From the NCBI GenBank assembly GCA_018062515.1, contig JAGOSC010000005.1, forward strand, positions 880 to 64,879: a stretch of 64,000 bases of DNA, given 5' to 3'. The position numbers and the translations under genes are program-made. This DNA comes from Candidatus Omnitrophota bacterium (GTDB taxonomy: Bacteria; Omnitrophota; Gorgyraeia; Zapsychrales; Zapsychraceae). The notes under the pieces are model-generated. The model did no database searches, was not told where the DNA came from, and was given only the letters and a program-made list of their open reading frames with translations. Numbering within the stretch: the first letter of the stretch is position 1; each line of letters begins with the position of its first letter. Positions 6,776-53,908 of the stretch are shown here, piece after piece.

Positions 6776-6834
6776 TGACACAAGATACAAAGTCACAAGT
6801 CACATGTGTCATTGTGACCTGTGTCTTGTGTCTG
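6776..6834. repeat. heptamer-built imperfect inverted repeat (GTCACAA-type), copy 2
   Basis: GACACAAGATACAAAGTCACAAGTCACATG-TGTCATTGTGACCTGTGTCTTGTGTC. It lies directly after the iPGM-like stop. Confidence 0.6.
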
Positions 6835-6856
6835 ATATGAAAGGACATAATCACTC

Positions 6857-8083: not shown

Positions 8084-8120
8084 TCAATCCATACAAATTC
8101 TATTTGGAGGATTTTCATAC

Positions 8121-19344: not shown

Positions 19345-19492
19345 TAAAATCTTTATTTATCCGCGCCCAGATAAAGATGATTTATCTTTTAAAAAATCGT
19401 TCTTATCTTTTTAGGATAATCTGCTAAGATAGTTCGTTGTATTTTAGAATAATCGCCACACATAGCATTAACCATAGAGAAAGAGGTCATAT

Positions 19493-19867
19493 ATGCAAAA
19501 CCCGCTGGTAGTTACCTTTCATGATCTTCCGCATTATCCCCAAATTGAAAAACTTATATCCGAAAAATTTGCTAAACTTCAAACTATCAACTCCGACGTG
19601 ACTAAATGCCATGTCATCCTCGAAAAATTGAGCAAACATCATCAAAAAGCCAACTCATCGTGCGTGCGCCTCGACCTGAAAGTGCCGCATTTAGATGATA
19701 TTGTTATTACCGAGAAATGCAGCGATGACGAAGCGGATCTTGCTTCAAATGTCATCAAAGTTTTTAAACTCGGACAATTGTCAATGCGCGAAGGAATTAA
19801 ACGTAAGCAAGATCGTCAGCGCGTCCCACGGCCAAATCTGGTAGAATCTGTCGAGGAACCTGAATAA
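19493..19867 (+). CDS. ribosome hibernation factor HPF/RaiA (sigma-54 modulation protein) family, tentative
   Basis: Length and pattern resemble HPF: ...ISEKFAKL...CHVILEK...VRLDLKVPHLDDIVITEKCSDD..., where HPF has ...TAKFAKL...VYVVLKVEK... SD GAGAAAGAGG. Confidence 0.5.
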   Translation: MQNPLVVTFHDLPHYPQIEKLISEKFAKLQTINSDVTKCHVILEKLSKHHQKANSSCVRLDLKVPHLDDIVITEKCSDDEADLASNVIKVFKLGQLSMREGIKRKQDRQRVPRPNLVESVEEPE

Positions 19868-21822: not shown

Positions 21823-21851
21823 TTGACAATGGATCGACTTTAATGTATACT
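21823..21851 (+). promoter_or_regulatory. near-consensus sigma70-type promoter (TTGACA-17 bp-TATACT) upstream of giant operon
   Basis: TTGACA at 21823-21828 and TATACT at 21846-21851 with a 17-bp spacer. It sits in an AT-rich 236-bp intergenic region ~170 bp before the gene A start. Confidence 0.45.
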
Positions 21852-22018: not shown

Positions 22019-25000
22019 ATGATGATTTTTAAAAGAAATAAAAGAAATTTAACCCGAAAAATAACTTCCACCTTTGTCTTATTTTCATTTATTTTCTCAT
22101 CAATACTACCTCCTCAAGTCTCGGCGCAGAGCGTATTCCATTTACCTATACCTGGGACCCTGTTTAATGTTACAAATACCTTTAATCCTTTTATCATTCA
22201 AGGGCTTACTGTAGATCCGCAAAATCCTCTTCATTTCAGTTTTATTATTGACACCGGCGACACGCAAACAAACGATCCAGACGCTTTCCGCTTAGAATCT
22301 ACAAAACTAGTCAAATATTTCTTAGCATCCTTAACCGTTCCCGAAGATCAAATGTGGGTTAACCTTTCTCCGTATGAAGGCAACCGCATTATTTCGGACA
22401 CATTTGGTCAAACCGAAATGGGCCGTGACTTATTAGCTCAAGATTATATTCTCAAACAAATGTCGGCTTCTTTAACGTATTCAGAAGAAGAATTGGGTGA
22501 AAAATTTTGGCACAGGGTCCACCAACGCGCAAAAAAAGAATACGGCGTTAAAGATATTCCTTTAAATACTTTTAATAAAGTATGGATCATTCCTCAGAAG
22601 GCAACCGTTTATGAACATGACGGCAGCGCGTATGTCGTCAATAGCCGGTTAAAAGTAATGATGGAAGAAGATTACTTAGCCTTAAACAAAAATATCGGTG
22701 AGCAAGCTTTTGGTATGAATAATGTCAAGCAAGATGAGGCGGAATCCACGAGTAAAGTTACTTCCGCCATCATTAAAGAAATTATTATCCCGGAACTCGA
22801 GAAAGAAGTGAATGAAGGCAGCCATTTTGCCAATTTGCGTCAAATTTATCAGTCGATGATTTTAGCGACCTGGTACAAAGTGAATTTAAAAGAATCACTT
22901 TTAGGAAAAGTTTATATTGATCAAAATAAAGTCCAAGGAATTGATTTAAACGACAAAAACGCGAATCAGAAAATTTATGAACAATATTTAGCCGCCTTTA
23001 AAAAAGGTGTTTACAACTATATTAAGGAAGACTACGATTCAGCCACTCATAAGTCAACACCTCGTCAATATTTCGCCGGCGGATTTGTTCCAAAAACCGA
23101 AGATAATGCGACTTTAGCAGAATTGATCACACGAGAGAAGACCACTCGTTTAGCCGCTACGGATCAGGCAGCTTTAACTCCGAAAGGAAACCAGATTCGA
23201 GCTGATTTCGCTTTATTAGAAGACTTAACCGATGAAGATGCTCCAAAGGTACAAAAACCGATTGAAAAAATTGAAGACGCGCAGATAGCTGTGGACCCTA
23301 ATTGGGTTGAGGACTATTTGGAAAATCTTTTCCCTGAAAACAGCTTTCCTAAACCAGTCAAACAAGAACCAGTCATTATCAGCAAAGAAAGAAAAGAATT
23401 AGAAGACGAATTAATCGCCAATCGTTCTCAATTCTCGGGCTCTAGAATAAATCGGAATATTAAGGAAAAAACAGGGCTTGACGTTCCCGAGGACACTGTC
23501 GATTATTTCGTCGAGCATAGTGGAACCCTCCCTGGATTAAATCACCGTGCTGACCGTTCCCAGGTTATAGGGCAACTTATCCGCAATCATCGTCCTTATG
23601 AAATCTCTAAATTATTTGCCTTATCAGAATCCAAAAATTTTGAAAGAAAATATTATCCTGCCTGGATCCAAGCTTTATCAAAAATATTTACTTTTTTGAA
23701 AGATAAAAATTCAACCATTAATACAGAATTAACCGTTCAAGTCAATTTAGACGGAATTCTTTTAATTAAAGACGGCTCGGGAGAAGAACTCAAGGCGTTT
23801 CAGAAATTGGATCAATTGCACACGGAAAAAGCTTCCGTCGGTGCACTGGCCCTTCAAATTGTCAAATTATTAACCCATGATTACGACGGTTTGGAACTCA
23901 CCAACACTAAAGAATTGTCAGATGATTTAGTATCCATCTTTAATATTTTCGGAATCAAGCCGACGGTGATTAATGATGCGTGGATGCAAACTGTCCTGGG
24001 ATACGGAGATTCTTCATTAAATCTTCAAGCTCTAAAAGAAGGCGTTGAAGTAACTGAAGCTGATGTCGACACTTATCTTTTCCGTCTGGACACAGAAAAA
24101 AGTTTAGCTCGTCAAGCCGGAGAGACTGTATATCTTTCTACGCGCTCAGAAGCCGTCGCTGAAATGATTAAAGAAAATAAATATGATTCTGCTCTTTTAG
24201 CCTCCATCGATGAAAAGGCTTTAACACCGGAAATTCTTACTGCTTTTGGCGGAAATGTAACGGCCGCACAAACGGTCGTGGCCGAGCGTCTTGAGGCTAT
24301 GCGCGTCGCTGATCCGAATGCCACCGTCGAGCAAGCTGTCGCCCGTTTAGCTTGGGAATATAAGCCGCGCGATATTCAAAACGTTTTTCCTGGAGACAAC
24401 TGGAAATTTATGTTTTTGGCCGCCAAAGCCGGCATGAAAGCTCCGATTCTTTTATTAGACTTGGAAGACGCAGTTGCGACAACTCGTAAAGAAATTGCCC
24501 GCGGTGTTATCGTACAATTGATCCGGGCTTTTAAAGGTGAAGGATTAACACAAGATGAATTTGATTTCTTGCAGAAGAACGCGCTTCAGGCTGATGATGA
24601 AAAATATCCGATGACTAGTTTCTTTACACAAAGTCTTGTCGACGGAAAAACTGTTTATACGTTAAATCCTGAAAATCAATTCCATAAAGATCAAATGGTT
24701 CTTTTCCGCCCGAATAATTTAAGAACAAAGTGGTCGGCAGGGGATTATTCTCAAGTTTTTCGTAAAGTCGGTCATTTGGTAGACGGTATTTATATGCCTA
24801 AAGTAGAAGGCCCAGAAGATATCAAAATCGGCGCGTCTATTTTACGCGCCATTCAGAAAGAACAAAACTGGGTCGTTGGTCGTCACAAAATTTTTGTTTT
24901 AACCGAACTTCCCGGCGCTGTTTTGACCGCTGAAAATATTTTAAAAATAGCTCCTGAAGTTGAAGAAGTTCAATTAGGAGTCGTCGATTACACCGCAGCG

Positions 25001-28000
25001 ACGGGTGGAAAAAATCAAGTTCAAATCGAACAATTTCCATTTATGCGTTATGCCTTATTACGCTTGGTTGAAGCCGCTAATAATATAGGGAAATCCGCCG
25101 GTTTAGGTATTACCGTTCAATTTACTCCAGAAGCAACAGCCGAGGATACAGTCAAGGCTATTAATATTGGCCTTCATCGCAAATGGAGCGTTCATCCAGC
25201 GCATTTGAAAGGCATGGAATCATTCATCGGAAAATTCCCAAAGATTGTCCGAAAAGATATTCAATATGATGAACTACAAGGATTTGATTTGGTACAGCTA
25301 GATCAATACGCTAGTGAAAGCCGTCCAATTTTAGCTCCTAAAGTTTTAACACCTAAAGATGTGGTTTTATCCAGAGCTGTGGTCACTGTTTCATCCGGAA
25401 ATATTGATGGGCTTAAAAAAGCTCTGGATTCAAATGCTGATACTATTATTTTGGATTTCGGGAAAAAAGAAAATTTGTCTGAAATTAAAAAAATATTAGT
25501 TCAGGCTAAAACAACAAAGAGTATTCTTGTTGTCGATGAGCTTGATTCCCTACAATCAATTAAACAAATTGTAACTGAGTTAAATGGATATTTTCAAGGA
25601 TTTAACCTGAATAACATACAGAATGCATCAACAGTAAGAGATGTGGATGGATTGTTATCAGAAGCAGAAAGTGATTTGGGATTAAACGCAGGCAGCTTAA
25701 AAATTGCCGTCAGCTTTAATGACCCGCAAGTGGTCGAGGAGCAATCCCGCTATCTCGGCACCGATCCAGCTAAAGCTCTTTTGTATTCCAGTCAACGCCT
25801 CAGCTGGGCCATCTTGAATTTGCCTACCATGCCGACTGAAGATTTAGATGATCCGGAAACGAGAGGATACAATTATTATCATTCTTTATTTATTGCCATG
25901 ACCGCTCATGCCGAAGTCGATTCCATCGACGGTTATAGCGCGGATGAGAATTTAACAGAACAAGTTGCGACCTCAGCCATTTGGGGATTTCAAGGAAAAC
26001 TAGCTAACTTGAATCAAGTTGATGAAATTACTGAAGCCATGAGCCCGCAGCGAGCTGGAATTATGCCAGAATTTTCTACTCCAGAGGAACGTAAAGCTTG
26101 GTTAGCTACTGCCGAAGGAAAAATTTATGTAGCACGTTGGAAAAATTCATTAGAACGAGATTTGGAACTGATGGATCTGTATGCCGAAGCGGATCAAGAA
26201 CGGCAATTAGGTGCGGTAGGTTATAAGGATCCTTTAACCGGCGCTATTGAAATCGTCGACGCTGCTTCAGCTCGAATTCCATTCCGACAATTAGAAAAAG
26301 CTTTAAAGACAAATCAATTAACCGATACGGAAAAAGTTCGATATGCAAAATCACGAGAAAAATTACTTTTAGCCATGCGTCCAGGCGGACGAGAAGGCAG
26401 CGGTGAAAAAGTTTTTGCCGGGCAAAAAATTACAGCTCCGGCCATTGTGATGCGTCCTTGGATGGTTAATGCGTTTGCTAAAGATGGCGATCAAAACCGT
26501 TATCATTTAGATGAAGCTTATGCCAACGCCTCAAAATTTAAAGGATTAGTTGCTCATGGATTATTGACGGTAACTAAGGCTTTAAGTTCTTTAAAAGCTC
26601 AATTACCGGCTTATAAAATTGAAGAAGTCGACGACGCTAAATTCTTAGCTCCTGTACGCTTTAATGATACGATTACCCCGGTCATTGATGTTACGAGTGT
26701 CGACAATGAAAAAGCCAATGTAAAAATTAGTGTAATCAATCAAGACGGAAAAACAGTCAGTGAAATCAAAGTTTTATTAATAGAAAGCACTGATTCTCAA
26801 ATCATTCCAAAAATTAATAATGATTCTTTAAAATCAGCAGAAAAGGTGCCGGCTTCTATTCCGGCCGTCATTTACGATTTTACTGATCCACAAAGTCCTC
26901 GAGAACAAACGTTCAAGCAGGAAATCACATCCAGTTATTTAGAAAATGTTCAAGGATCTAATTTGATTACAAGCCGGGATTTATTAAGTCAATTAGCTGC
27001 CTTTAAAATGATGGCCGGTACTTCCGCCAATGCCGTCCCAGGCCACATATTATTGAATGCAACAAATGTAAAATTCGGAGCTGAAATTCATTTAGGTGAT
27101 GTATTGACCGCCAAAGCTACTGTTCCTGCAGCTGATCAAATTAAATTGACTAAAGACAATCTTCCTAAAGTTCCAGTCACGATTGAAATCACGAATCAAA
27201 ATGGAGAAATGGTTTTAAAAGGACAAGTATTAAAACTCATGGAACCGGGTAAAGATCGAGCGATGCTGGCCAAAAAACCATACCTTCTGCCAAGAGGAAA
27301 AATTGTTACATCGCCGGATGAACTTCCAACACATATGGAAGCATATGTAGTCCGACGCGGTGAGCATGGTGACCCAATTGATGCGTTTAAAAAATCCATT
27401 CAACCCGTTCCCGATGTGGGCGATTATGAAGTCCTTGTCCAAGTTATGGCTGGAGGATTAAATTTTAATGGAACATGGGCCCTTCAAGGTCTTCCCATTT
27501 CTCCATTTACTTATCCTTTGAATAAATTCCACGATGAACAACGCTTAGGTAGTGATGCTTCAGGCATTGTTGTGGCCGTTGGCAAACATGTCACACAATA
27601 TAAAATTGGTGATCAGGTTGTTATGGCTACCGGTGAAGATGACCGCGCTGAAAAAGATCCTGATCATGGCGATACCATGCAAAAACGAACGTTTGTTATC
27701 ACCGGGTATGAAACTCCGGATGGAACGTTCGGTCAATTTGTCGCTTTGGATGAACGTCAAGTACATCCGAAAGAGGCAAATATGACTTGGGAACAAGCCG
27801 CCAGTTATCATTTAGTCGCCGACACAGCTTGGCGAGATATGAAATACAAACTGGGTGTTAAAAAGGGAGATACTGTATTAATCTGGGGGGCATCAACAGG
27901 AGTAGGAGCTTTTAATGTCCAGATCGCTAAATATTTAGGAGCCAAGAATATTGTGGCGGTTGTTTCCAGTGCTTCAAGAGCGGAACAAGCCAGAAAATTC

Positions 28001-29941
28001 GGGGCCACTCAAGTGATTAATCGAACTGAACTTCCTAAAATTTTGGGATACAGTGATGCTGAAATTTGGGGTGAACTCTCTAACAATCCCCAAAAGCAGC
28101 AAAAACAAATTGAAATGTTAAATAAGTTCAGAGAATATTTTCTTTCTCTAACGGGTGGTGAATTAGCCGATGCCGTTGCGGAACAAATCGGCCAAACAAC
28201 TTATCCAATTAGTCAATATTTAGCTAAAGATTCCGGAAAAGTCACTCATTTTGCCGGAACATTTGGTTTCAAATTTACCTTTATGGGAAAAGATTTACCG
28301 TTGGATGAGAATACAAAAAAGCAAAAAACGCCACTTCAAATGTTAGAAGAAGCTGGTGTACGCGACGCTAAACGAGTGCTGATATATGGTGCTGATCAAC
28401 TTTCTAAAGAAATTTTTGAGGAAGTTAAAAAATACAGCACTAATATTGCTTTCATCGTTAAAAGCCAAGAAGAACAAAATACAGTCGAAAACTGGGATTT
28501 AGAAAAGACATATATCAAAGGTATTGTAGATTTAAATCCGATTTCTTTTCCTGAAGATATGCCTACACCTCCTCATCCAGACATCCCGGCAGATAAACAG
28601 GCAAAAAATCTTGAAGAATTTAATGAGTATCGTATCAAAGTACTGGATCCAATCCGAGGATCGGTTGTAAAAGCTTTAGGCGGTCAGCCCGACTTAATTG
28701 TTGAAAGAGCGGGGAACAAAAATACTTTGGATATCAGCGTATTTGTCGTGCGTCCTCATGGCGTCGTAACATATGTTGAATCAACAAAAGGAAAACGTTT
28801 AGTCTTTGATGCCCGATTTATTTGGATGTTCCAAAAGCAAATTTATCCTTGGGTTCTTGGGACTCATTATGCGAACCACACACAAACCAAGGAATTAAAT
28901 GATTTAGTTTTAAAAGGCATCATAAGCGTACCTGAACCCGAAGTATTTTCTTGGGATGAATTACCCTTAGCCCAGCAGAAAATGTATGAAAATAAATTAA
29001 TCGCAACCAAAGCGTCTGTTCTTATCGGAGCTGTTAAACCAGGACTGAAAGGTCTGCCCGAAGAAACTGCGGCAGAACTGCCCATAAAAAACGAAGAGGG
29101 ATTGCTTCCGGCTTTCATGATTACCTCAAAAATCATAGAACCCACCATTTCTGATAATCAAATCAATCTTTATAAGAATCCGGCCATTGATCTATCTGAG
29201 AAATTCGCAATATTAGCTGCTAAATCAAAATTTAAAGACCCAAATAGCGCCCTAGGAATGTATGCCTTGGAAACAAAGGCATTTATACCTGCCATTGTTG
29301 AAAAAGTTTTCGGGAACACGGCGGAATTAGGGGAATTTAAATTAAAGGGGTTTACATCATTTGCTCCTAGCGGATTAGATGCTAATGATCAAATTCGAAC
29401 GACATTGCAAGTAAGCCGCAATTTTAAGATCGACGGGGATGATGTATACCTTAATGCCCGTATATCTTTGGATAAATTTTTTGTCGATTCCGGAAAATGG
29501 AAAGAGTTGTTGGTCGGAAATCAAATACTAAAAATGCCAATTAACGACTTAAACTCTTTAGGTTTTTACTTACCGTCTGAAAAAATTGACTCCGCTTTGA
29601 TTGGAGAAAAAAACGATGTTAGCCTGAATAATAATATCGCTGAATCCAAAAAAGAATACGGCGGTATTGACTTTAATTCAAAATTTTTGAATCTTCAGAT
29701 CAAGCGTGATGGACGAGGAATTCCATTGCCGGTGAATCAGCAGCCATTGATGAACATTCACATCAATGGATTTTATCCGGTTCTCATTGAAACAATGCCG
29801 ATTAATTTACCATTGATTCTCGGTTTAGAGACGGAAGAAGAAGATTCGAATTCAAGAACTCAACAAAGTTCACTTGATCCTTTGCATAAACAAGAAGACA
29901 TACGTATCGAAGATTTAGAAACAGCCAGCATACTAAACTAA
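22019..29941 (+). CDS. giant secreted mosaic protein A (2640 aa): signal peptide + shared N-module + CitE-like lyase + MaoC double-hotdog + crotonyl-CoA carboxylase/reductase-like MDR + shared C-module
   Basis: RBS GAGAGGAAA. Signal peptide ...SILPPQVSA|QS. N-module 22127-23085. CitE signature ILLLDLEDAV at ~24445. Hotdog VAHGLLTV at ~26545. CCR-like VLVQVMAGGLNFNGTWALQG at ~27430 with Rossmann LIWGASTGVGAFNVQIAKYLGA. C-module YGGIDFNSKFLNLQIKRDGRGIPLPVNQQP at 29655-29941. Confidence 0.85.
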   Translation: MMIFKRNKRNLTRKITSTFVLFSFIFSSILPPQVSAQSVFHLPIPGTLFNVTNTFNPFIIQGLTVDPQNPLHFSFIIDTGDTQTNDPDAFRLESTKLVKYFLASLTVPEDQMWVNLSPYEGNRIISDTFGQTEMGRDLLAQDYILKQMSASLTYSEEELGEKFWHRVHQRAKKEYGVKDIPLNTFNKVWIIPQKATVYEHDGSAYVVNSRLKVMMEEDYLALNKNIGEQAFGMNNVKQDEAESTSKVTSAIIKEIIIPELEKEVNEGSHFANLRQIYQSMILATWYKVNLKESLLGKVYIDQNKVQGIDLNDKNANQKIYEQYLAAFKKGVYNYIKEDYDSATHKSTPRQYFAGGFVPKTEDNATLAELITREKTTRLAATDQAALTPKGNQIRADFALLEDLTDEDAPKVQKPIEKIEDAQIAVDPNWVEDYLENLFPENSFPKPVKQEPVIISKERKELEDELIANRSQFSGSRINRNIKEKTGLDVPEDTVDYFVEHSGTLPGLNHRADRSQVIGQLIRNHRPYEISKLFALSESKNFERKYYPAWIQALSKIFTFLKDKNSTINTELTVQVNLDGILLIKDGSGEELKAFQKLDQLHTEKASVGALALQIVKLLTHDYDGLELTNTKELSDDLVSIFNIFGIKPTVINDAWMQTVLGYGDSSLNLQALKEGVEVTEADVDTYLFRLDTEKSLARQAGETVYLSTRSEAVAEMIKENKYDSALLASIDEKALTPEILTAFGGNVTAAQTVVAERLEAMRVADPNATVEQAVARLAWEYKPRDIQNVFPGDNWKFMFLAAKAGMKAPILLLDLEDAVATTRKEIARGVIVQLIRAFKGEGLTQDEFDFLQKNALQADDEKYPMTSFFTQSLVDGKTVYTLNPENQFHKDQMVLFRPNNLRTKWSAGDYSQVFRKVGHLVDGIYMPKVEGPEDIKIGASILRAIQKEQNWVVGRHKIFVLTELPGAVLTAENILKIAPEVEEVQLGVVDYTAATGGKNQVQIEQFPFMRYALLRLVEAANNIGKSAGLGITVQFTPEATAEDTVKAINIGLHRKWSVHPAHLKGMESFIGKFPKIVRKDIQYDELQGFDLVQLDQYASESRPILAPKVLTPKDVVLSRAVVTVSSGNIDGLKKALDSNADTIILDFGKKENLSEIKKILVQAKTTKSILVVDELDSLQSIKQIVTELNGYFQGFNLNNIQNASTVRDVDGLLSEAESDLGLNAGSLKIAVSFNDPQVVEEQSRYLGTDPAKALLYSSQRLSWAILNLPTMPTEDLDDPETRGYNYYHSLFIAMTAHAEVDSIDGYSADENLTEQVATSAIWGFQGKLANLNQVDEITEAMSPQRAGIMPEFSTPEERKAWLATAEGKIYVARWKNSLERDLELMDLYAEADQERQLGAVGYKDPLTGAIEIVDAASARIPFRQLEKALKTNQLTDTEKVRYAKSREKLLLAMRPGGREGSGEKVFAGQKITAPAIVMRPWMVNAFAKDGDQNRYHLDEAYANASKFKGLVAHGLLTVTKALSSLKAQLPAYKIEEVDDAKFLAPVRFNDTITPVIDVTSVDNEKANVKISVINQDGKTVSEIKVLLIESTDSQIIPKINNDSLKSAEKVPASIPAVIYDFTDPQSPREQTFKQEITSSYLENVQGSNLITSRDLLSQLAAFKMMAGTSANAVPGHILLNATNVKFGAEIHLGDVLTAKATVPAADQIKLTKDNLPKVPVTIEITNQNGEMVLKGQVLKLMEPGKDRAMLAKKPYLLPRGKIVTSPDELPTHMEAYVVRRGEHGDPIDAFKKSIQPVPDVGDYEVLVQVMAGGLNFNGTWALQGLPISPFTYPLNKFHDEQRLGSDASGIVVAVGKHVTQYKIGDQVVMATGEDDRAEKDPDHGDTMQKRTFVITGYETPDGTFGQFVALDERQVHPKEANMTWEQAASYHLVADTAWRDMKYKLGVKKGDTVLIWGASTGVGAFNVQIAKYLGAKNIVAVVSSASRAEQARKFGATQVINRTELPKILGYSDAEIWGELSNNPQKQQKQIEMLNKFREYFLSLTGGELADAVAEQIGQTTYPISQYLAKDSGKVTHFAGTFGFKFTFMGKDLPLDENTKKQKTPLQMLEEAGVRDAKRVLIYGADQLSKEIFEEVKKYSTNIAFIVKSQEEQNTVENWDLEKTYIKGIVDLNPISFPEDMPTPPHPDIPADKQAKNLEEFNEYRIKVLDPIRGSVVKALGGQPDLIVERAGNKNTLDISVFVVRPHGVVTYVESTKGKRLVFDARFIWMFQKQIYPWVLGTHYANHTQTKELNDLVLKGIISVPEPEVFSWDELPLAQQKMYENKLIATKASVLIGAVKPGLKGLPEETAAELPIKNEEGLLPAFMITSKIIEPTISDNQINLYKNPAIDLSEKFAILAAKSKFKDPNSALGMYALETKAFIPAIVEKVFGNTAELGEFKLKGFTSFAPSGLDANDQIRTTLQVSRNFKIDGDDVYLNARISLDKFFVDSGKWKELLVGNQILKMPINDLNSLGFYLPSEKIDSALIGEKNDVSLNNNIAESKKEYGGIDFNSKFLNLQIKRDGRGIPLPVNQQPLMNIHINGFYPVLIETMPINLPLILGLETEEEDSNSRTQQSSLDPLHKQEDIRIEDLETASILN

Positions 29942-29957
29942 TAAGGGACGCAGCTAA

Positions 29958-32900
29958 GTGATTAATCAATTTAAGAAGTTTCAGCCACGATTTGCTTATA
30001 AATTATTCTGTGCGGTCATCAATGTTGCGTTTATTTCAACTTCGGTTCTCCCACCGAGTTATGCTCAGGTTTTACCAACCGCATTTGCATTACCGCAACC
30101 CGGGGCAATGGTTAACCTAACGGAGAAGTTTATGCCGGTCATCGTGCGCGGCATAACCATTCATCCTGAAAATCCGCTTATGTTTGATTTTATGGTGGAT
30201 CAAGGCGACACAACTCTTGATGCGACCGCCCTCAAAAACGAATCGTTAAAACTAATTAAATACTTTCTCGCTTCCTTGACCATTCCAGAAAAGGAAATGT
30301 GGGTCAATCTTTCTCCGACGGAAAAAGATAGAATTATTCCTGATTCGTTTGGAGAAACCGAAATGGGACGGGATCTCTTAGCCCAAGATTATGTTCTCAA
30401 ACAGTTGACGGCCTCTTTGATGTATCCGGAAAAAGAATTAGGCCAAAAATTCTGGCAGCGCGTCCGTGAACGGGCGAAATCCGAATATGGTCTAACAGAT
30501 ATTCCGATGGATACATTTAATAAGGTATGGATTGTGCCTAAATCAGCGGTTGTTTTTGAAGGTAAAAATTCTGCCTTTGTCGTTGAGAGTGAGTTGGACG
30601 TCATGCTTGAAGAAGAGTATTCCCAGTTAGATGGTGTCATCCAGGCTCAAGGTTCCTCGTCGATAAAAAGTAGTTCAGCAAAAGAAATTATTAAAGAAGT
30701 CATTTTACCGGAAATCAAAAAAGAAGTTAACACGGGAGAGACTTTTGCGAATTTGCGTCAGATTTATAATTCCATGATCTTGGCTTCCTGGTATAAAGAT
30801 AATTTAAAAAAGAGTCTTTTAGGACAAGTATACGTCGATCAGAATAAAATACGCGGCATTGATGTTGAGGATAAAAATGTCAAACTAAAGATTTACGACC
30901 AATATATGAAGGCCTTTAAAAAAGGTGTTTACAACTATATAAGAGAAGATTATGACTCAGCATCTAAGAAAATGGTTCCGAGAAGATATTTTTCCGGTGG
31001 GGAAACATTTACAAATTTAAAAATCACTCGCCAGGATATAGATGATTCCGGGATGCTAAGCGCTTCACAAAAAGATGCAATGAATCCGGGTAATACCGAC
31101 GTCATTGTGACAGTAGCGTTAGCTGACTTTGGAAGCAATGTCGATACGACAACTTTAAAACAAGCCGCAAAAGAACTCAATGAAGATCAATCCATGGTTG
31201 GCGAAAATCCTGAGAATAAAAAGGGAATAACCGGAGGATTTTTAACGGACGGCAATTTGGTTGTATATGATAATCCTAAAATTGTCCTTTATCCGGAAAA
31301 TGTTAAAGATCATCCTGATGTCGACACAATGTATCAAATGTTTGAATCCATCTTGGGTCAAAATTCTGAAATTGTACAATCAGTGGGTGAAAGGATTGAC
31401 ACGAAAGAAATTCACGTCGAAGAACCATATGAAGTTACCGTTAACGGGAAAAATGAATCACGAGAAAGTTTAATTAAACAATTAGGCGGTTTAGGTCTTT
31501 TAGGCATGTCGGTACCGGCTGAATATCGAACCGTTGAACTCGGTGGTGATGGTAAAAAGGCCTTCCCTAAAATTGTTAAATCATTGGCGGATAAATGGGC
31601 ATGGTATGGGAACGCGTCTATTGGATCGCTGGTGCGTGTTCATGGCGGCGTGTCTACATTTCCAATTTTAATTTACGGAACGGAAGAACAAAAGAAAAAA
31701 TATTTGCCAAAATTAGCCTCGGGAGAAATGATCGGCGCTTATGCGTTGACGGAATCGAATCATGGGTCTGATACTCTTAATCAGGAAACTGTATTTGATA
31801 CCACCGGGGTTATCGTCGAGCAAGATGGCAAAAAGTATGTAAAAATAAATGGTTCAAAACAATATATTACCAATACACGTTTTGCGGATATTTTCACCGT
31901 GTTTGTGTCTGTCCAAAATCCTGAATGGAATAAGGATCAACCAGACGCAGCCCCACAATGGTTAAAAAGCGTTTTTGTCGTTGAGAAGAAAGATTCCACA
32001 CCGGATACTTTTTCATTTGGACCCGAAATGGAAAAAATTGGGCTTCCCGGATCTGCGACCCAAGAAATATTTTTTAATGATTTACTGATACCGATGGACA
32101 ACCTTTTAGGCAAATTAGGCCAAGGCGATAAAATCGGCATGAGTATTCTTAATTATGGACGATTAGCGATTGGCGCCGGATCTTTAGGCGGAAGCCAACG
32201 TATTCTCGATGAGAGTATACGCTGGATCCTTACTCGTCAGCAATTCGGACATCCCTTGGCCGACTTTAGCGCTGTTCAAACCAATATCGCCGAAATGGAA
32301 GCGAATATTTATGCGATGGAAGCCTTGGTTTATGCCGTCAGCGCGTTATTAGATAACAATGAAGCACCGGGGTTAGAAGCATCAATAGCCAAGGTCTGGG
32401 GGTCCAACACATTTCAGAAAATTGCCCAGATGGGTGTCAATCTGCGTGATGATGAAGGTTTTCTCAAATCAACGCATGTTAACCGCATACTCGGTGATTC
32501 CGTTGTCATGTCTATTTTTGAAGGGGCGAATGAAGTTCTTTCGTCACAGGTCATCGCCGCTTTATCCATGAAATACTTAGACAAAAAAGATAAATTATTA
32601 GGCAGCTGGACAATCCCTCAAGATAGCCCTGTTTACGACGAGAGTTTGCATATAAAACAGGCTGCCGAAACAATTATGCAAGCCAAGGATAAATTGATTA
32701 AAACCTACGGAACGACGTCGGTCTTGCGGGAGCGCGGGAAAGAACATCTTCAAGAATATTTTAATGCATTTGGATTAATGATCGCCGATCTGTACGTATT
32801 AGTGAATACGCTTAATCGAACACATCATTTGCTTTTGTCAAATCCTCAATCACAACATGAAAGGAATTTAGCTAAATTGGTTGTTGAAGAAGGTATTCGT

Positions 32901-35141
32901 CGAATCGAAAGCAATGCCGGGCTCATCTTGACTCAGGATGAAATTAAACTAGTTAATCTGGGTACCGAAAGCCCTGTGGAGCTCAAAATACAAGTAGCAA
33001 AACATATTTTAGAGAATAATAAATTTATGACGTGGACCCCTGCGACAGCCACCGACGAAGAAATAGTGAGTACGGAAGGCGCAAAACCGGTATCAACATT
33101 CCTCTTTAGTGGTCAAAAAGGTGAATACCCGGAATCAGCTTTACCATTTATGGAAGATAATGAGCAGTTTGCTGAAGGCCCGATGTACGAAGGTCTTAAA
33201 GAAATTTTCGCGGATATGGTCGTTTCTAAACAGATTAATAAAAATTTGGATGAAGGCCATTTAAAACTCACGCAGATTTGGGACGAACTGAAAGAATTAG
33301 GCCTTTTTGATCCGGAATACTCTACCATTGTAAAAAATTGGGTGAATCAATTTGCGGCATATGCCAGCCCGTCGCTAGGACTTACTTTAGCCGTTCATAA
33401 CGGCGTAGGTTCTATGCCCATTAAACTTTTTGGAAGTGATGCGCAGAAGGAAAAATATTTACCGCTATTTAACTCTGGTGAAAATATCGCGGCCATGGCC
33501 ATCACGGAAAAAGAGCATAACTCAGATATTTATTCTGACAATACGGTATTAGAAACGACCGCCACGCCCATCACCGACGAGAATGGAACGATTGTTTCTT
33601 ACCAAATCAAGGGTTCAAAAGATTATGTGATTAATGCGAGTGACAACAGCATATATATTATCTTAGCTTCGGTTTTGAATGAATCACAAGGAAAACAAAA
33701 ATCTTTATTTATCGTCGAGCATAACGATACTGGAAAAATTTCGGTCACAGAACAAAAAAATAAAATGGGTTTGAGATCAGCTATGACCGCGGTTGTTGAT
33801 TTTAATATCACCGTTCCGGCAGACCGCATGATCGGTGAGGCGGATCAAAGCGATATGATCAACCAAAACATTCAAGGTTATACGTGGACTGCTTTGGGTT
33901 CCATTTATTTAGGCGCCAGTGACATTGCGTTTAAAGAAACTTTAAAGTACGTAACTCAGCGCAAACAATTTTCCTACAAAAAAGATAATGTTTTAAAAAG
34001 AAAATTCATCGCGGATTTCGGTGCCGTACAAATATCCTTAGCCAACTCAGAAGCCATGTTATACGCCTTGGAATCGATGGTCTATGCTGTCAATGCAGAA
34101 TTTGATAGCGGCCGTAATCCCGTTTTTGAATCAGCTATTTTGAAAGTGATCGGGACAAACACATTCCAGGATATTGCCCGTCAAGGTGTGCAAAAACACG
34201 GCGGCATGGGTTTCGGGCGGGAAACGGAAGTCGCTAAATATTTCGAAGATTCCATCGCACTCGCGCAGATTGGCGGATCAAATAATGTCCTATTAGGTGT
34301 TGTTATCGGCCCCTTGGGATTAACGGCTTTAAAAGAAAATTCCGGCCTGAGCATTTTGGAAAACTGGAATATTCCGGAAGGCCCGTTGACGGATGATGTC
34401 CTTAGAATAAAAGTAGCCGCTAAAACTATTTTGAATATGGTGAGTGAATTTGAAAAACGCGGCATTACGAAAAATAACCCTTCCGCCAGTATATATTTTC
34501 ACCTGCTTGGAGAAATGTTTGTCCAACTCTATGTGATGACCACGACGGTGAACCGCACTCAACATCGTTTAGATAAGGGCATGGATTCTGCGCATGAAAT
34601 TGGTTTAACAAAAACCATTGTCATTGACGGGATACAAAAAATACAAAAATTAGCGCAAGAATTACGTATTTCTGCGCCATCCACGCCATCCCTAAACAGT
34701 GATCAATTGGTGGCCTTGAAAACAGAAATCGCGGAATCAACATTAGAACGCACGACCGATTGGGAAAAACCACAAACAGAAAAAGATATAGCCATGGTGG
34801 CAGAAACCGAAGATCCATACTTGATGAATAAAGCAGATCTCAATACACCGTCGACAAAAGATAAGGTAGGGGGTATTAATTTAGACCGTTCCTTACTGAA
34901 TATGCAAATCCTCCGGGATGAGGGCGGTGTTCCTCTTCCGCTCGACGATCAACCGCTTTTGGAAATGAATATCGAAGGGTTTATTCCGGTGATCATTCAA
35001 ATTACACCGGCTCTAAATGTGCCTTTATTGTTGGGGTTAGCCGGTGAAAAGAAAGATTCAAATTCAAACAGCCAACGCGGTTCGCTAGACCCTTTGCAAA
35101 AAAAAGAGCATATGCTTGTAGAATATGAGGAACGCAGCTAA
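29958..35141 (+). CDS. giant secreted mosaic protein B (1727 aa): signal peptide + shared N-module + two acyl-CoA dehydrogenase units + shared C-module
   Basis: GTG start 16 nt after A. Signal ...VLPPSYA|QV. ACAD signatures GAYALTESNHGSD (~31740) and AAMAITEKEHNSD (~33490), each followed by a ~150-aa helical extension. C-module GGINLDRSLLNMQILRDEGGVPLPLDDQP at 34870-35141. Confidence 0.85.
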   Translation: MINQFKKFQPRFAYKLFCAVINVAFISTSVLPPSYAQVLPTAFALPQPGAMVNLTEKFMPVIVRGITIHPENPLMFDFMVDQGDTTLDATALKNESLKLIKYFLASLTIPEKEMWVNLSPTEKDRIIPDSFGETEMGRDLLAQDYVLKQLTASLMYPEKELGQKFWQRVRERAKSEYGLTDIPMDTFNKVWIVPKSAVVFEGKNSAFVVESELDVMLEEEYSQLDGVIQAQGSSSIKSSSAKEIIKEVILPEIKKEVNTGETFANLRQIYNSMILASWYKDNLKKSLLGQVYVDQNKIRGIDVEDKNVKLKIYDQYMKAFKKGVYNYIREDYDSASKKMVPRRYFSGGETFTNLKITRQDIDDSGMLSASQKDAMNPGNTDVIVTVALADFGSNVDTTTLKQAAKELNEDQSMVGENPENKKGITGGFLTDGNLVVYDNPKIVLYPENVKDHPDVDTMYQMFESILGQNSEIVQSVGERIDTKEIHVEEPYEVTVNGKNESRESLIKQLGGLGLLGMSVPAEYRTVELGGDGKKAFPKIVKSLADKWAWYGNASIGSLVRVHGGVSTFPILIYGTEEQKKKYLPKLASGEMIGAYALTESNHGSDTLNQETVFDTTGVIVEQDGKKYVKINGSKQYITNTRFADIFTVFVSVQNPEWNKDQPDAAPQWLKSVFVVEKKDSTPDTFSFGPEMEKIGLPGSATQEIFFNDLLIPMDNLLGKLGQGDKIGMSILNYGRLAIGAGSLGGSQRILDESIRWILTRQQFGHPLADFSAVQTNIAEMEANIYAMEALVYAVSALLDNNEAPGLEASIAKVWGSNTFQKIAQMGVNLRDDEGFLKSTHVNRILGDSVVMSIFEGANEVLSSQVIAALSMKYLDKKDKLLGSWTIPQDSPVYDESLHIKQAAETIMQAKDKLIKTYGTTSVLRERGKEHLQEYFNAFGLMIADLYVLVNTLNRTHHLLLSNPQSQHERNLAKLVVEEGIRRIESNAGLILTQDEIKLVNLGTESPVELKIQVAKHILENNKFMTWTPATATDEEIVSTEGAKPVSTFLFSGQKGEYPESALPFMEDNEQFAEGPMYEGLKEIFADMVVSKQINKNLDEGHLKLTQIWDELKELGLFDPEYSTIVKNWVNQFAAYASPSLGLTLAVHNGVGSMPIKLFGSDAQKEKYLPLFNSGENIAAMAITEKEHNSDIYSDNTVLETTATPITDENGTIVSYQIKGSKDYVINASDNSIYIILASVLNESQGKQKSLFIVEHNDTGKISVTEQKNKMGLRSAMTAVVDFNITVPADRMIGEADQSDMINQNIQGYTWTALGSIYLGASDIAFKETLKYVTQRKQFSYKKDNVLKRKFIADFGAVQISLANSEAMLYALESMVYAVNAEFDSGRNPVFESAILKVIGTNTFQDIARQGVQKHGGMGFGRETEVAKYFEDSIALAQIGGSNNVLLGVVIGPLGLTALKENSGLSILENWNIPEGPLTDDVLRIKVAAKTILNMVSEFEKRGITKNNPSASIYFHLLGEMFVQLYVMTTTVNRTQHRLDKGMDSAHEIGLTKTIVIDGIQKIQKLAQELRISAPSTPSLNSDQLVALKTEIAESTLERTTDWEKPQTEKDIAMVAETEDPYLMNKADLNTPSTKDKVGGINLDRSLLNMQILRDEGGVPLPLDDQPLLEMNIEGFIPVIIQITPALNVPLLLGLAGEKKDSNSNSQRGSLDPLQKKEHMLVEYEERS

Positions 35142-38100
35142 GTGATTATTCAGTTTAAAAAATTCCAGTTAAAATTTACCTATAAATTTCTTTGTACGGT
35201 TATCAATATTGCGTTTATCTCGACTTGTGTTCTACCGCCGAGCTATGCTCAGGTTTTATCTTTACCCCAACCTGGAACCATGCTGAATGTAAGCCCGGTT
35301 TATACTCCGCCCATGATCAAAGGACTGACCATTGATCAAGAAAACCCGCTGCATTTTCAATTTATTATTGATACTGGAAATGAACAATATAAAGATAATG
35401 ATCAGCTTCGAGAAGAATCAACACGCTTAATTAAATATTTCCTTGCTTCGTTAACAGTTCCTGAAAATGAAATGTGGGTGAACCTTTCACCCCATGAAAA
35501 AGACCGCATTATTCCCGACGGGTTCGGCCAAACCGAAATGGGCCGTGACCTTTTAGCCCAGGATTATATTTTAAAACAACTCACCGCGTCATTGATTTAT
35601 CCTGAAAAAGAATTAGGGGCTGAGTTTTGGAAAAAAGTGCATGACCGCGCTTGGAAAGAATTTAAAACAAAAGAAATTCCATTGGATACATTTAATAAGG
35701 TTTGGATTGTTCCGGAAAAAGCAGTGATTTATGAACATGAAAGAAGCGCTTATGTTCTGGAAAGTCATTTAAAGGTCATGTTGGAAGAAGATTATCAAGC
35801 ACTTATATCCAATACTTCGTCGACATCCGCGGACAATCAAAAATTAAAAGATGATAATCGGCAACTGACAGCGTCGATCATGAAAGAAATTATTATTCCG
35901 GAAATCGAACGGGAAGTTAATGAAGGTAAAAATTTCACAAATCTACGCCAAATTTACCAGTCGATGATTTTAGCGACGTGGTACAAGATGAACTTAAAAG
36001 AGTCATTACTTGGACAAATTTACGTCGATCAGAATAAACTCATAGGGATTGATCTCGACGATAAGAATGTTAAAGACAAAATTTACGCGCAGTATATAGA
36101 AGCCTTTAAAAAAGGTGTTTATAACTATATCAAAGAAGATTATGATCCTGACCAGCAAAAGACCGTTCCTCGTCAATACATTTCGGGCGGTTTCTCGACG
36201 GTAGGAAAAGATAACGCAACGCTCGTTGATCTCGTTGGCCGAGAAATCATTAAGTCCAGCGCCGGCTATGTGAGCGCGGATCAATATAAACGTATTTCCA
36301 AAGGACTTAAACCCAGCGGTGATCAATTCAGAACAGATGTTCAATTATTAGAAAACGGAAATAATGGAATTATTAACGCCGATCAATCCATGCTGGTTAA
36401 GATCGACGATGCTTTACAAAAAAATCCTTCTCAAAAAGTTCATACGGTTAAAGGATACACACCGGCTGGAAATCCAATTGAAGATGTTCTTACATATCAG
36501 GATATCAGCGACCAATCCAATCAATTTGCCCATGTATTAAAAAATGCGGGGATTGAAAAAGGCGACCGTGTGGCTGTTATGTCGCCGGTCTCAGGTTTGG
36601 AAATGATCGCGTCTTTGGGAATTTGGAAAGCCGGGGCAGTACGTGTACCGTTTAAAACCCAATGGACGTCGAATGAAATTAAAAAATATTTGACCCAAAC
36701 CACGCCTGAAGCGATGGTTATTCTAAATGTGTATTACGATCAACATTTATTGTCAATTTTAAATGAATTTAAAGATTTAAAAGTTTATATCATTTCTTCC
36801 GGCGAAACTATTTCTTCAACACCTCACGTCATGACTTTTCAAAATAGTTTAATCAATCAAACAACGGATTTCTTAAATATTTCTTCCGATCCGAGGGATT
36901 TAGTCCAATTGGCTATTTCCACCGGAACAACCGGTGAATCAAAAATTGTAAAGCAAACACAAGAAAACTTTTATTTCAGTACGCAAGAGTATAGTGAGTG
37001 GCTTGATGATGCTCCTCAAGGCCCTGTCGTCAGCACTTTACCGCCGGGAACGTACGGAAGCCATAGTATTTTAGGAACTGTTCTGCGAGGACGTCCGTTA
37101 TATATCGTTCCCCGTTTACCCAAAAATCAAACGACCGATGAATATACCCAGACATTATCGGAAACATTGAAGAGAACAAACGCGAAAATTTTATTCGGCG
37201 TTCCAACGCAATTTCAGGCTTTAGCCATGACGGGAGAAAAATTCCCCGGCCTTATTGGTTTAAGCCGAGGAGCCGCGTTAAGAGATGTAAAACAATTATT
37301 TGAGTCGGTGACCGGAGGACGGGTTATCGAAGGTTATGGATTGACAGAAGGAACCAGTTCAGTCACCAATCCGATTAATAGAGATAAGCCGGGTACCGTC
37401 GGAATTCCGTCAAAAGATACGACATTTAAAGTCATTAATCCATCCACGCAAAAAGAACTTCCCATTGGTGAAGAAGGTGAATTAGTGTTAAAAGGCCCGC
37501 AGGTTATGGCCGGATATTGGGAAGATCCTGTGGGCACTAAAGCCGCTTTTACAGAAGATGGATTTTTAAGGACCGGCGATTTGGGCTCCATCGACAAAGA
37601 TGGTTATATAAAAATCACCGGCCGCTTAAAAGACATTATTATTTCCGGCGGTGATAATGTCATTCCGTCGGAGGTAGAAAAAATTATTAAAACCAACGCC
37701 GCTATCGAAGAAGTTACCGTCGTCGGTATAAGTGATCCTGGCCGTTTTCCTGATGATCCGGCATTTGCTGAGCTCGTTGAACATTGGGGGGAAGTTGTTG
37801 TCGCGTTTGTCGTCCCGAAAAAGGGCATGAATACTTTAAATTTAGAGCCATCCATACGAGAATTTGCCAAAAAGAATTTGGCTGCTTATAAAGTCCCCAA
37901 AAAAGTTGTTGTCCTCAATAAACTGCCTCTGCTAGGAGACCTTTTTAAAATTGACCGTCAACAACTCATCCGAGGCGACAATGACAATGCTGTTTTAGTT
38001 ATTCCTTCAGCCATCAAGAATATAGAAAATATAAAAGCCAAATTAGTGTTAAATTTTATGATAAATGAGACTTTAAGAAATGGTTTAATTTCCCAAATTG

Positions 38101-41100
38101 ATGGCGAAAAACTTATTCCTTCTGTGGCCATTGATGATGAACAAATAACAGTTGCAAAAAAAGTCAGCGATGAAGAATATGAACTATCCGGAACGAAGGC
38201 GGCTGTTGTCAATGGAGGCCGGGCTTCTTTTTATATTGTATTTGCGCAGCTCAACGGAAAATCAAAAGCGTTCTTAGTCGACAATCCAAAAGGGATAACC
38301 AAAAAATCTGTTCCCACCATGGGCTTGGCTGAAAATAATATTGCTCAAGTTCAGTTTAACCGTGTTAGAGCCAAACTCATCACTGATAATTTAGACGATT
38401 CCGAAATACTTAAAGCTGTACAAAATAAAGAAAATAAAATCATTCGAGCCCTGGCTATTTCCGAAGCCCAAAGGATATATAAAATGGGCGAGAAATATGC
38501 CGCCGAAAGACGCGCCTTTGGACAATCCATCAATAAATTCCCATCTTTAAAACGATTAATGGATGGTATTCAAACGGATGTAGAAAACATCAATGCATCC
38601 CCGAATCCAACCGCCATGCTGGTTGATATAGCCAACCGTGTCCTTCAAATTTTTGCGGCGCGCGGATTTGAAAATAATACGCCGGCTGTAAAAATCTGGC
38701 GTGAGGCACAGGCCCTACATGCCATTGTCACTTATCGGCAATCTTTAACAAAAACAACTCCGGAAAACATATCTCTTGACCCTGAAGAGGTATTTAAAAA
38801 AGGTTCATGGGAAGATTTTGGATTAACACCGGATCAGATTTCTCTAAAATCGAAAATTCGCAATTTTGCGGAAAATATCGTCGCGCCAATGTATGAAGAG
38901 CTTGATCGTGATGGACAGTATCCGCTTTCTATATTGAAGAAAATGGGGGATGCCGGCATTACAAAACCCGGTTATCCAAAAGAAGTTGGCGGTGAAGAAG
39001 CTGACACATTAAGCTGGGCCATCGTCGTCGAGGAACTGGTTAAAGCGGCTCCGGCCTTCGGTATATTTTCCGGTGTTCCGCACACGGCTTCCGTTCCAAT
39101 TCTCAAATCCGGCACTCCCGAACAGAAAGAAATTGTCGCGCAAGTTGTCCGCGGAGAAATTCCTCTATCTTACGGACAGAGCGAACCTCACAGCGGATCG
39201 GACGTTGGCGGAATTAAGACAACGGCTCATTTAACAAAACGTGATGGTGTTGAAGGTTATGTTATTAACGGTGAAAAAATTTGGATTGGAAGCGCGACCG
39301 TAGCTCCGTGGTTGGTATTATTGGCAAAAACAGGCGAGGCTACTGATCGAGATTTAAATAAATTTGCATTTTTCCTAGTCCCGTTTCGGGATCAAGATGG
39401 TAAATTCCAAAAAGGAATTGAAGTTCATGAAATGGATTTATTGGGAATGCGGGGAATTGGCAACAGCCATATCATTATGAAAGATGTATTTATTCCCAAA
39501 GAAAATATATTAGGTGAAGTTGGTAAAGGATTTAAAACCGCTATGCACGCCATGGATAGCGGGCGTATTTTTGTTTCCTCTCGAGGATTGGGCGTGATAA
39601 GCCACGCGGTGGAGAATGCCAAAGAAGCTTTAAAAGAAGCATTGCGAGAAAATCCGAACTTGCCCCACGCTCAAAATTATATTTCTCAGATTGACTTAAT
39701 GGAAGCCGAACGGCTAAGCGTGCGGGCTATGCTGCAAAAAACATCTGACATGAATGACCGAGGCAAACGCATGACTTATGAAACGGCGATCATGAAATGG
39801 ATTGCCGGAGAAGTTGCTGCCGACATTGCTCAGCGTTCCTACGATCTAATTCACACCATCTCATATAATCCATCACGATGGGCGCATTCCGAACGGGTTT
39901 TGCGGGATTCGCGGCAAATTCGTATCGGCGAAGGGACGCCGCAAATTATGCAACGTATCGCTGGTCTTAAAATCCGACGTCAAATGAAAAAAAAGTTAAC
40001 ACATTTATCAAGTGACATTATTTTACAGGATGCCCTAAAACAAATTCTCGACGAAAAAGAAAATGATTCTGTGCCTACCCGTCTGAATATTCTGTTTAAT
40101 ATAGCTCTGGCCGCATACCTCAAAGCGATTAAAGATGGACAATTTGATATTACGCCCGTCGAGCCATATGGCATTGAATTGGATTTGGCTAATTTAGAAG
40201 CCTTGCGTATGCGTGTGAATGATTTTCAAAAAATGCTCACACAAATGGCGCAATCTGGACAACCTTTTCCTTATGGAAATGCTGTTCAGATATTTATGAA
40301 TCAGAAGTATGTCGAAGCTGAGACGATAGTTCATAATATTTTTACACAATTAAGTTTTAAGACCGAATTGGAAGAAATAAAAGACTATGCTATGATCGCT
40401 TCACTGCAAGTCGAAGAGCTTCGCAAACGTTTTAAAGAAACCGGCGGAGCGATCACACGGGAAGAAGCGCAACAAATAGTAAAAGGTGCAAAGCCAGAAG
40501 AGGTTGCAGTTGTCCTTGAGCAAATAGCATATCAGTCAAGCCTTTATGGGCCTGTCAACGATCCTGCCATTAACAGAGTTGATCCAAAAATTTATGAATC
40601 TTTAATTGGAATTCCTGGTCAAGCGCCGTTTGTCCGCGGATTGTTTCCTTCAGTTACGCAGCGCGCTGCTGGCCGATGGCCGACGGTACGACGTTATGGT
40701 TCGTATGGAACTGCGGAAGAATCAAACGCCAATCTTAAAAAACAATTAGAAGCGGGTGTTACTGGATTTAGTATTGCTTTTGATTTACCGACTCAAAATG
40801 GTTATGACACAGGTCATCCTTTAGCTGTTGGAGAAGCTGGCCGCGTCGGTATCGCCATTAACACATTGCAAGATATGGAAGATCTTTTTGATGGACTGCC
40901 TTTAGAGAAAATTAGTACATCAATGACCATTAATCCAACCGCGCCAATTCTTTTTGCCATGTATGTGGCTGCAGCGCGTAAGAAAGGCGTGCCAGACAAA
41001 TTAATTGCCGGAAGCGTTCAAAATGATAGCTTGAAAGAATACACGGCGCGTAATACGTATGTTCTACCTTATAAAGGTATGATGCGCATGACCACAGATG

Positions 41101-53814: not shown

Positions 53815-53908
53815 TACCAAAGATCGTGATAGATTCTGTGTTGACGATGTGTACAATATCAATTATATTATTTACACATATCCACGGTCTAAACGCTTAA
53901 AAAAATTC

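Follow-up and report, generated by a model that had tools for sequence, protein, structure and literature searches.

A duplicated gene boundary as a probable relic of old segmental exchange in a tandem array of Omnitrophota genes

Ectopic gene conversion and concerted evolution among bacterial paralogues are known from tufA/tufB of Salmonella and from the opa and pilS/pilE genes of Neisseria, where the copies are nearly identical and exchange is ongoing. In the vlp, vsp and vsa lipoprotein genes of Mycoplasma, which undergo phase and antigenic variation, a conserved 5' region and signal peptide precede a divergent mature part. Here we describe a duplicated gene boundary in a tandem array of four genes, A to D, from a Candidatus Omnitrophota bacterium (assembly GCA_018062515.1, contig JAGOSC010000005.1, positions 880 to 64,879 of the forward strand). 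The window is this whole stretch of 64,000 nucleotides (nt), all coordinates are window positions, and all features of the array lie on the forward (+) strand. A piece of ~240 nt, running from the tail of one gene into the start of the next, is present at the A/B boundary (copy J1) and again at the B/C boundary (copy J2). With a probability of roughly 0.6, we regard it as a piece copied between the neighbouring boundaries by non-allelic homologous recombination, after the N-terminal modules of the genes had diverged to saturation.

The tract resembles those of tufA/tufB, opa and pilS/pilE in being contiguous, pair-specific and discordant with its flanks, and in lying between close, co-oriented paralogues. 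Unlike them it is ~20% diverged, with no exact stretch above 17 nt, and it spans a gene boundary (a 3' tail and the next 5' end) rather than lying within one gene. As in the Mycoplasma vlp, vsp and vsa genes, tandem paralogues are much more alike in upstream region, start and signal peptide than elsewhere in the protein. In contrast to those genes, however, whose 5' block is common to the entire family, the shared block is confined here to two of the four genes, the mature N-terminal module is conserved and there is no hint of switching. The B/C boundary is also like that of translationally coupled cistrons in general, in geometry only: the TAA of B abuts the GTG of C, and a Shine-Dalgarno (SD)-like GAGGAA lies within the end of B. 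The A/B copy has a 16-nt gap between stop and start, so no single coupling geometry goes with the shared sequence.

Long 'multi-enzyme metabolic cluster' proteins with signal peptides or transmembrane anchors have been described from Omnitrophota (Nielsen & Lui 2026, bioRxiv 10.64898/2026.06.07.730766; West-Roberts et al. 2023, bioRxiv 10.1101/2023.11.21.568195), and the repeats in such long-protein genes were concluded to be ancient and diverged, not recent expansions (Nielsen & Lui 2026, bioRxiv 10.64898/2026.06.07.730766). The present genes are alike in belonging to the same phylum and in placing a string of cytoplasmic-type enzymes after an export or anchor signal at the N-terminus, but they encode 1.7-3.5 thousand amino acids (aa), whereas the surveyed proteins have 10,000 aa or more. 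The two survey texts, as far as they were searched, do not describe the N- and C-terminal modules introduced below or a boundary exchange, and the literature searched held no paper combining Omnitrophota with gene conversion.

Genes A (22019..29941, 2640 aa, ATG start) and C (35142..45560, 3472 aa, GTG start) were defined from the list of open reading frames (ORFs), their translations and Pfam, and genes B (29958..35141, 1727 aa, GTG start) and D (45567..52088, 2173 aa, ATG start) are NCBI MBP9853541.1 and MBP9853543.1. All four follow a shared plan of hydrophobic leader, N-module of ~360 aa, cargo, C-module of ~55 aa and short tail. A DNA motif search placed the 17-nt exact core of the boundary repeat, ACGCAGCTAAGTGATTA, at 29948..29964 between A and B and at 35132..35148 between B and C. 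These were its only two matches in the window, no more were found with up to 2 mismatches, and shuffles gave an expectation of 0.01. Together with the preceding AGGx, 21 of 22 positions match between the boundaries. The surrounding similarity is much longer: by blastn, 29941-30074 and 35125-35258 are 80.6% identical over 134 nt (E=2e-30), a tract that takes in the ribosome-binding site, stop, GTG start and signal peptide, and the first 114 nt of B and C are 79% identical without gaps. The C/D boundary (TAATAAACC ATG) is unrelated to J1 and J2. An exact run of at least 17 is expected with P=0.47 when 108 matches are placed at random in 134 positions, and longer exact matches lie inside conserved protein motifs of the paralogues (29 nt for A-B, 26 nt for A-C and 20 nt for B-C); the 17-nt core thus needs no explanation of its own.

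The two boundaries differ in how this sequence is read. Gene B ends in GAG GAA CGC AGC TAA (E-E-R-S-stop, to 35141), and its TAA (35139-35141) directly abuts the GTG of C (35142-35144) in the same frame. Its last codons, Y-E-E-R-S-stop (35125..35141), match the non-coding A/B spacer and contain the SD-like GAGGAA for C. Gene A has already ended at TAA TAA (29939-29944), and the GTG of B at 29958 lies in another frame, 16 nt past the A stop; the spacer between them (29945..29957) consists of a GGGA SD-like motif, CGCAGC, and then a TAA that is in the B frame and abuts the start. A first-pass annotation of this DNA, made from the sequence alone, had described a core of ~20 nt common to the two junctions, this difference in reading frame, and B and C starts about 80% identical at the DNA level, and all three descriptions are borne out by the alignments and the sequence.

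The similarity does not begin at the genes' ends, but extends further upstream, which the annotation had overlooked. The tails that follow the C-modules of A (..DSNS..SLDPL.K.E.., 29841..29895) and B (35053..35107) are homologous, with 76.4% identity over 55 nt by blastn (E=8e-7), and whole tails (29835-29957 against 35041-35141) gave a local alignment z of 11.7, with none of 500 shuffles scoring as well. When all tails of the array were compared, no pair other than A/B aligned. Pairwise, the boundary alignment is unbroken from about 29838/35050 to 30074/35258 save for one gap of 28 nt. As the alignment carries on past the gene boundary into the two tails, the duplicated object is the ~240-nt boundary piece, comprising the polar tail of the upstream gene, an SD-like motif, a spacer ending in TAA, the GTG and the 36-residue signal peptide of the downstream gene. 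The 28 nt found only at A/B (29913..29940) encode the last codons of A, L-E-T-A-S-I-L-N, and most of its first TAA. Genes A and C share the ending ...LN TAA TAA, and what is missing at B/C is precisely the 28-nt stretch that encodes this ending at A/B. If these 28 nt are taken out of an A/B-like sequence, the reading frame changes and the ORF runs through AAG GGA CGC AGC to the TAA beside the GTG, as it does at the end of B. The A/B state is therefore probably ancestral, as the simpler reading, and the E-E-R-S-stop of B would be former spacer that has become coding. The annotation had taken the RS-stop codons at A/B for an out-of-frame fossil of a coding end; on this reading the polarity is probably the reverse.

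Within the piece, the best-kept stretch surrounds the start codon. The piece takes in the GTG start and signal peptide of B (MINQFKKFQPRFAYKLFCAVINVAFISTSVLPPSYA, followed by QVL; 29958..30074, where J1 ends downstream at about 30074) and those of C (MIIQFKKFQLKFTYKFLCTVINIAFISTCVLPPSYA, followed by QVLS; 35142..35258, where J2 ends at about 35258), as aligned by blastn. By eye, both leaders look like Sec-type signal peptides, with a KK..R/K n-region, an h-region of ~18 residues and a PPSYA end that would be cleaved before Q, and AlphaFold modelled leader residues 2-30 as one helix. An M-I-x-x-(F/I/L) N-terminus and a ...PP..A end before Q recur across the family, and the 'MI...' supports the assigned start of B. 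A ratio of non-synonymous to synonymous divergence (dN/dS) of about 0.13 shows translation of the leader and purifying selection on it. This selection, which probably acts on the translation-initiation region as well (AGGA/GGGA at -15 to -11; about half of the window's other genes have SD-like motifs at -16 to -8), would explain why the start region is well kept; it does not account for the pair-specific excess or for the upstream extension. The leaders of B and C match at 27 of 37 positions with a score of about 135, against 83 for the best foreign leader at the same core identity. The leader of A finds better matches in other genomes than within its own array.

Pair-specificity, and not the level of identity, is what sets the tract apart. 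The leaders of B and C are 76% identical in aa and 78% in nt, against 25-34% and 44-50% in the other five pairs. In the N-module cores, all six pairs are alike (60-66% aa, 64-68% nt, third-position identity 45-48%), and the B/C core, with means of 64% nt and 64% aa, is no closer than the others. The annotation had put the similarity of the B and C starts far above that in the remainder of the N-modules, and this was overstated, as conserved core windows reach 75-79% nt in B/C and up to 85% nt in other pairs. It had also proposed recombination tests, and a GENECONV-type permutation test on the four paralogues delimited, for B/C, a fragment spanning alignment nt 16-142 (p<0.0002), in which 58 of 83 variable sites match against a background of 39%. 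Four of the other five pairs were not significant, and A/D gave p=0.009 elsewhere. Of the parsimony-informative sites, 11 of the 13 within the first 90 nt group A with D and B with C, as do 44 of the 104 beyond them (Fisher p=0.004). The tract is discordant with the history of the cores: in a neighbour-joining tree of about 320 columns that included the nearest sequences of other genomes, A, C and D grouped with 76% bootstrap and B fell outside, and B and C were sisters in only 2 of 200 replicates.

The relative age of the tract was estimated from synonymous change. Core synonymous sites are effectively saturated, with a synonymous divergence (dS, by the NG86 method) of 2.2-3.9 or undefined, and of 2.6 for the B/C core. 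Counts of identical codons in the cores are near the codon-usage expectation, if slightly above it in every pair (81-107 observed, 77-93 expected). The B/C leader tract gave a dS of 1.04 and a dN of 0.13 (37 codons, noisy), same-codon sharing exceeded that of the core at Fisher p=0.075, and third positions were identical at 23 of 37 codons (p=0.027 against the core rate). Since dS is saturated in the core and about 1 in the tract, the piece is probably younger than the split of the cores, and both the similarity of the non-coding spacer and tails and the tree discordance point the same way. The two copies of the tract differ by 9 aa changes, and a 12-nt indel lies just after it. Efficient RecA-mediated recombination in E. 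coli usually needs roughly 23-27 bp of identity. The longest exact stretch in the tract is 17 nt, which falls short of this and gives homologous recombination little to work with at present. We thus read the segmental exchange as one that postdates the divergence of the four genes and is nevertheless old, a relic that is neither recent nor ongoing. Of the recent duplication or ongoing conversion proposed by the first-pass annotation, a past segmental exchange is retained, on the permutation test and the tree discordance; 'recent' is not supported by copies that are 20% diverged in nt with a dS of about 1, nor 'ongoing' by a longest exact match of 17 nt.

The favoured course of events can be set out as follows. 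The ~240-nt piece would have been copied from one boundary to its neighbour, either as a gene-conversion tract or by unequal crossover or insertion, with B ending up between two copies of the repeat. A deletion of 28 nt at the B/C copy would then have removed the ...LN TAA TAA ending, so that B came to read the former spacer as E-E-R-S and to stop at the TAA abutting the GTG of C, and both copies may since have drifted to their present divergence of about 20% in nt (dS about 1). These data do not discriminate between gene conversion, unequal crossover and an insertion of B between repeats. Several points weigh against copying after divergence. The tract dS rests on 37 codons and the same-codon excess is marginal (p=0.075); the core window at aa 304-342 shows equal or higher synonymous identity; and gene starts may favour AT-rich codons, which would raise third-position identity. 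The signal peptide is under purifying selection and is of a type seen across genomes, and its similarity could in part be retained ancestry. The collections searched (genomes and metagenomes) held no strain variants or close orthologous arrays, the best relatives having at most 61% aa identity, and the tree is a neighbour-joining tree of about 320 columns with moderate support.

Retained ancestry can be put in a stronger form, in which no exchange took place at all, B and C having kept, under strong purifying selection, an ancestral type of signal peptide and initiation region, and A and D having diverged or gained others. The low dN/dS of about 0.13 in the B/C signal peptide suits this, as do the conservation of signal-peptide types between genomes, the frequent excess of this region over the core in cross-genome pairs, and a shared core made up of SD motif, stop, start and the family-wide M-I N-terminus. 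It fits poorly with a similarity that enters the non-coding spacer and the tails of the upstream genes, the tails matching in A and B only, with a tract dS below that of the saturated core, with a B/C leader similarity far above that of cross-genome pairs of equal core identity, and with the fact that 159 loci of other genomes contain neither the 17-mer nor the tract, and we consider it quite unlikely. Insertion of a cassette, which corresponds to the route that the annotation had envisaged for plugging new cargo genes into the array and is also unlikely if a little less so, would have placed the whole B unit (N-core, cargo and C-module) between its neighbours A and C through one crossover at the boundary piece, from a source such as a circular or ectopic copy, leaving J1 and J2 as direct repeats on either side. 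The copies do flank B exactly (about 29841-30074 and 35053-35258), B is the outlier of the N-core tree, and its C-module has no recent tie to those of A or C, which resemble each other. However, no integrase or transposase occurs among the flanking genes scanned, the repeats are 20-25% diverged and hence old and not separable from a conversion tract, B groups with foreign sequence at only 50% bootstrap, and at none of the other 24 tandem junctions surveyed is a gene flanked by a repeat of full tail and signal peptide.

A simple tandem duplication of a whole gene fares less well. Under it the boundary would be the remnant of a duplicated B/C ancestor whose N-core and cargo were later overwritten; B and C are indeed adjacent and co-oriented, both start with GTG and both carry acyl-CoA dehydrogenase domains. 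But identity between these dehydrogenases is only 24-26%, the cores of B and C were sisters in just 2 of 200 bootstraps, and all core pairs, including A/C and C/D, are synonymously saturated, so that none was overwritten after the boundary was copied. We consider this very improbable. Chance similarity or an assembly artefact can practically be dismissed. Only 0.01 matches to the core were expected, and the tract aligned at E=2e-30. The annotation had asked for mis-assembly at the repeats to be checked, and Logan contig L161 (run SRR11088468) crosses both boundaries and is identical to window 28440-43610; it may stem from the same reads as the window. Independently of this contig, copies that differ at one position in five (20%) are no collapsed or chimeric repeats, and the longest exact repeat of 17 nt is far below read or k-mer length, so mis-assembly is no concern.

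As regards function, the boundary piece could supply a ribosome site, a start and an export leader to an internal cistron. The B/C boundary has the stop-start geometry of coupled cistrons, TAA followed by GTG, and such a geometry would allow coupling by termination and reinitiation. The predicted RNA structure of the junctions is not unusual (fold z-scores +0.14 and +0.27). An RNA element at the junctions was considered and rejected, given fold z-scores of about 0 and an Rfam search that found just three tRNAs, elsewhere in the window. Rejected too was the idea of B and C as a split or soon-to-fuse ORF: an internal N-module, or a C-module far from the end, occurs in none of 160 related loci. 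As no fused version exists among these loci, the shared frame of B and C is taken as coincidence.

The boundary is not the only place at which the array appears mosaic. The C-modules, whose consensus is GGIDLN..L.LQIKRD..G.PLP..QP...GF.PVII..TP..LPLLLG, lie at 29660-29824 (A), 34869-35036 (B), 45300-45464 (C) and 51816-51983 (D), and the tract 29655..29826 of A is specifically similar to 45295-45466 of C (self-blastn 76.7% over 172 nt, E=3e-31), with an exact match of 26 nt. Over 55 codons the A and C modules have a dS of 0.73, and all other pairs are saturated. We read this as a second, independent, pair-specific mosaic tract in the array. A weaker A/D fragment was seen in the N-core at alignment nt 521-616 (A ~22540-22635, D ~46080-46175), with 33 of 50 variable sites matching. 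Since the boundary piece ties B to C, the tail A to B and the C-module A to C, the units of the array are mosaics and no clean duplicates, and such mosaic histories matter for phylogeny and for orthology assignment of these genes. The pattern is compatible with modular shuffling of cargo without being proof of it.

The N-module, found within about the first 400 codons of each of A to D, has at least 1458 homologues, and those that are named come almost all from Omnitrophota, with cargo as varied as ankyrin, NUDIX, HAD, epimerase and receiver domains, among others. Neither N-module nor C-module matched anything in Pfam, NCBIfam or PDB sequences. The AlphaFold model of the N-module is confident (predicted local distance difference test, pLDDT, 79; predicted template modelling score, pTM, 0.81), and Foldseek found no match for it in the PDB. 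In 160 fetched loci, the N-module stood at the ORF start in 180 ORFs and was internal in none, and the C-module, found in 130 ORFs, stopped 7-48 aa short of the ORF end (5th-95th percentile), with none beyond 150 aa. All four genes fit this architecture, with the N-module after a hydrophobic signal, the C-module near the C-terminus and variable cargo between them. In cross-genome pairs the signal-peptide region is often better conserved than the core, and signal-peptide types are kept between genomes; blastn was used for this survey, and semi-global alignment was discarded because it inflated identities over short alignments.

Sharing of both full tail and signal peptide was found only at the present pair of boundaries among 27 tandem junctions, and at none of the other 24. 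ACGCAGCTAAGTGATTA and the 134-nt tract were absent from 159 loci of other Omnitrophota, and on that ground the boundary sequence was rejected as a family-wide motif. Exchange of other kinds is visible elsewhere. In another Omnitrophota contig (L077), 2573-4965 and 6895-9283, belonging to two neighbouring family genes, form a 2.4-kb repeat with 98.8% identity; either the duplication or conversion behind it is truly recent, or the assembly has collapsed here. The repeat comprises the upstream region, leader, N-module and beyond, and the 3' ends (6625-6862 and 10442-10679) are 88.7% identical. A further contig (L018) has two genes whose 5' ends are 89.5% identical against 73% in the core, and another pair with cores 88.7% identical; its four tandem family genes, at 3720-4796, 7102-8199, 10146-11082 and 18717-19633, have N-cores 69-89% identical in a mosaic pattern. 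Judged from these alignments, exchange between neighbouring paralogues recurs in the family at various ages, and a duplicated boundary is no general feature of it. The process that probably produced the boundary duplication, recombination between neighbouring paralogues, is ordinary and well known, and the Omnitrophota family in which it is seen here is uncharacterised. The duplication is of value as a marker of how that family evolves, and the proteins themselves are more unusual than the boundary trace.

A more far-reaching role can be envisaged, in which the boundary piece and the N- and C-modules provide the recombination homology for inserting, swapping and re-ordering units of N-module, cargo and C-module, with B as one inserted unit. 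This would recall the cassette arrays of polymorphic toxins, Rhs and CdiA, in which conserved modules flank variable inserts that recombination can swap. In contrast to those arrays, there are no toxin/immunity pairs and no orphan cassettes here, the cargo is acyl-CoA-related and swapping is only hypothesised, and we regard such a role as doubtful. If it were true, the arrays would form a modular system of cassettes that serves exported or anchored metabolic enzymes and has as its basis an N-module without recognisable fold relatives.

The cargo differs from gene to gene. Between leader and N-module on one side and C-module and tail on the other, gene A carries domains like HpcH/citrate lyase, MaoC and zinc-dependent alcohol dehydrogenase/enoyl reductase, and gene B two acyl-CoA dehydrogenase units. 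Gene C encodes, after its signal peptide and N-module, an AMP-binding acyl-CoA synthetase, an acyl-CoA dehydrogenase and a methylmalonyl-CoA mutase with a B12-binding domain, followed by the C-module; gene D has a signal peptide of a different type, an N-module, carboxyltransferase and cyclic-nucleotide (cNMP)-binding cargo and a C-module. Taken together, the cargo resembles an acyl-CoA pathway set of cytoplasmic-type enzymes (synthetase, dehydrogenases, hydratase, enoyl reductase, B12 mutase, carboxyltransferase and a malyl-CoA/citrate-lyase-like domain), all behind leaders that look Sec-type; enzymes dependent on CoA and cofactors would be odd outside the cytoplasm. The database entries for B and D come from a Candidatus Omnitrophota metagenome-assembled genome, each forming a singleton 90% cluster from that one genome, and no complete product of gene A is on record. 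Two Logan contigs of run SRR11088468, L161 and L081, break within gene C, where they overlap by only 20 nt (window 43591-43610).

A consensus scan for promoters had its best sigma-70-like match (TTGACA-17-TATACT, 11 of 12) upstream of A at 21823..21851 on the forward strand. The total number of sites was no higher than in shuffles, and the match is thus only suggestive. In the same scan no promoter-like or terminator-like site stood out at A/B or B/C, and as nothing comparable lies at these boundaries the array is probably one operon. Further along the window are a gene with HTTM and vitamin-K-dependent gamma-carboxylase lumenal domains (59502-61166, E=4e-49 and 7e-32) and, downstream of the array, a full-length serpin (53849-55177, E=3e-127), both of them uncommon in bacteria.

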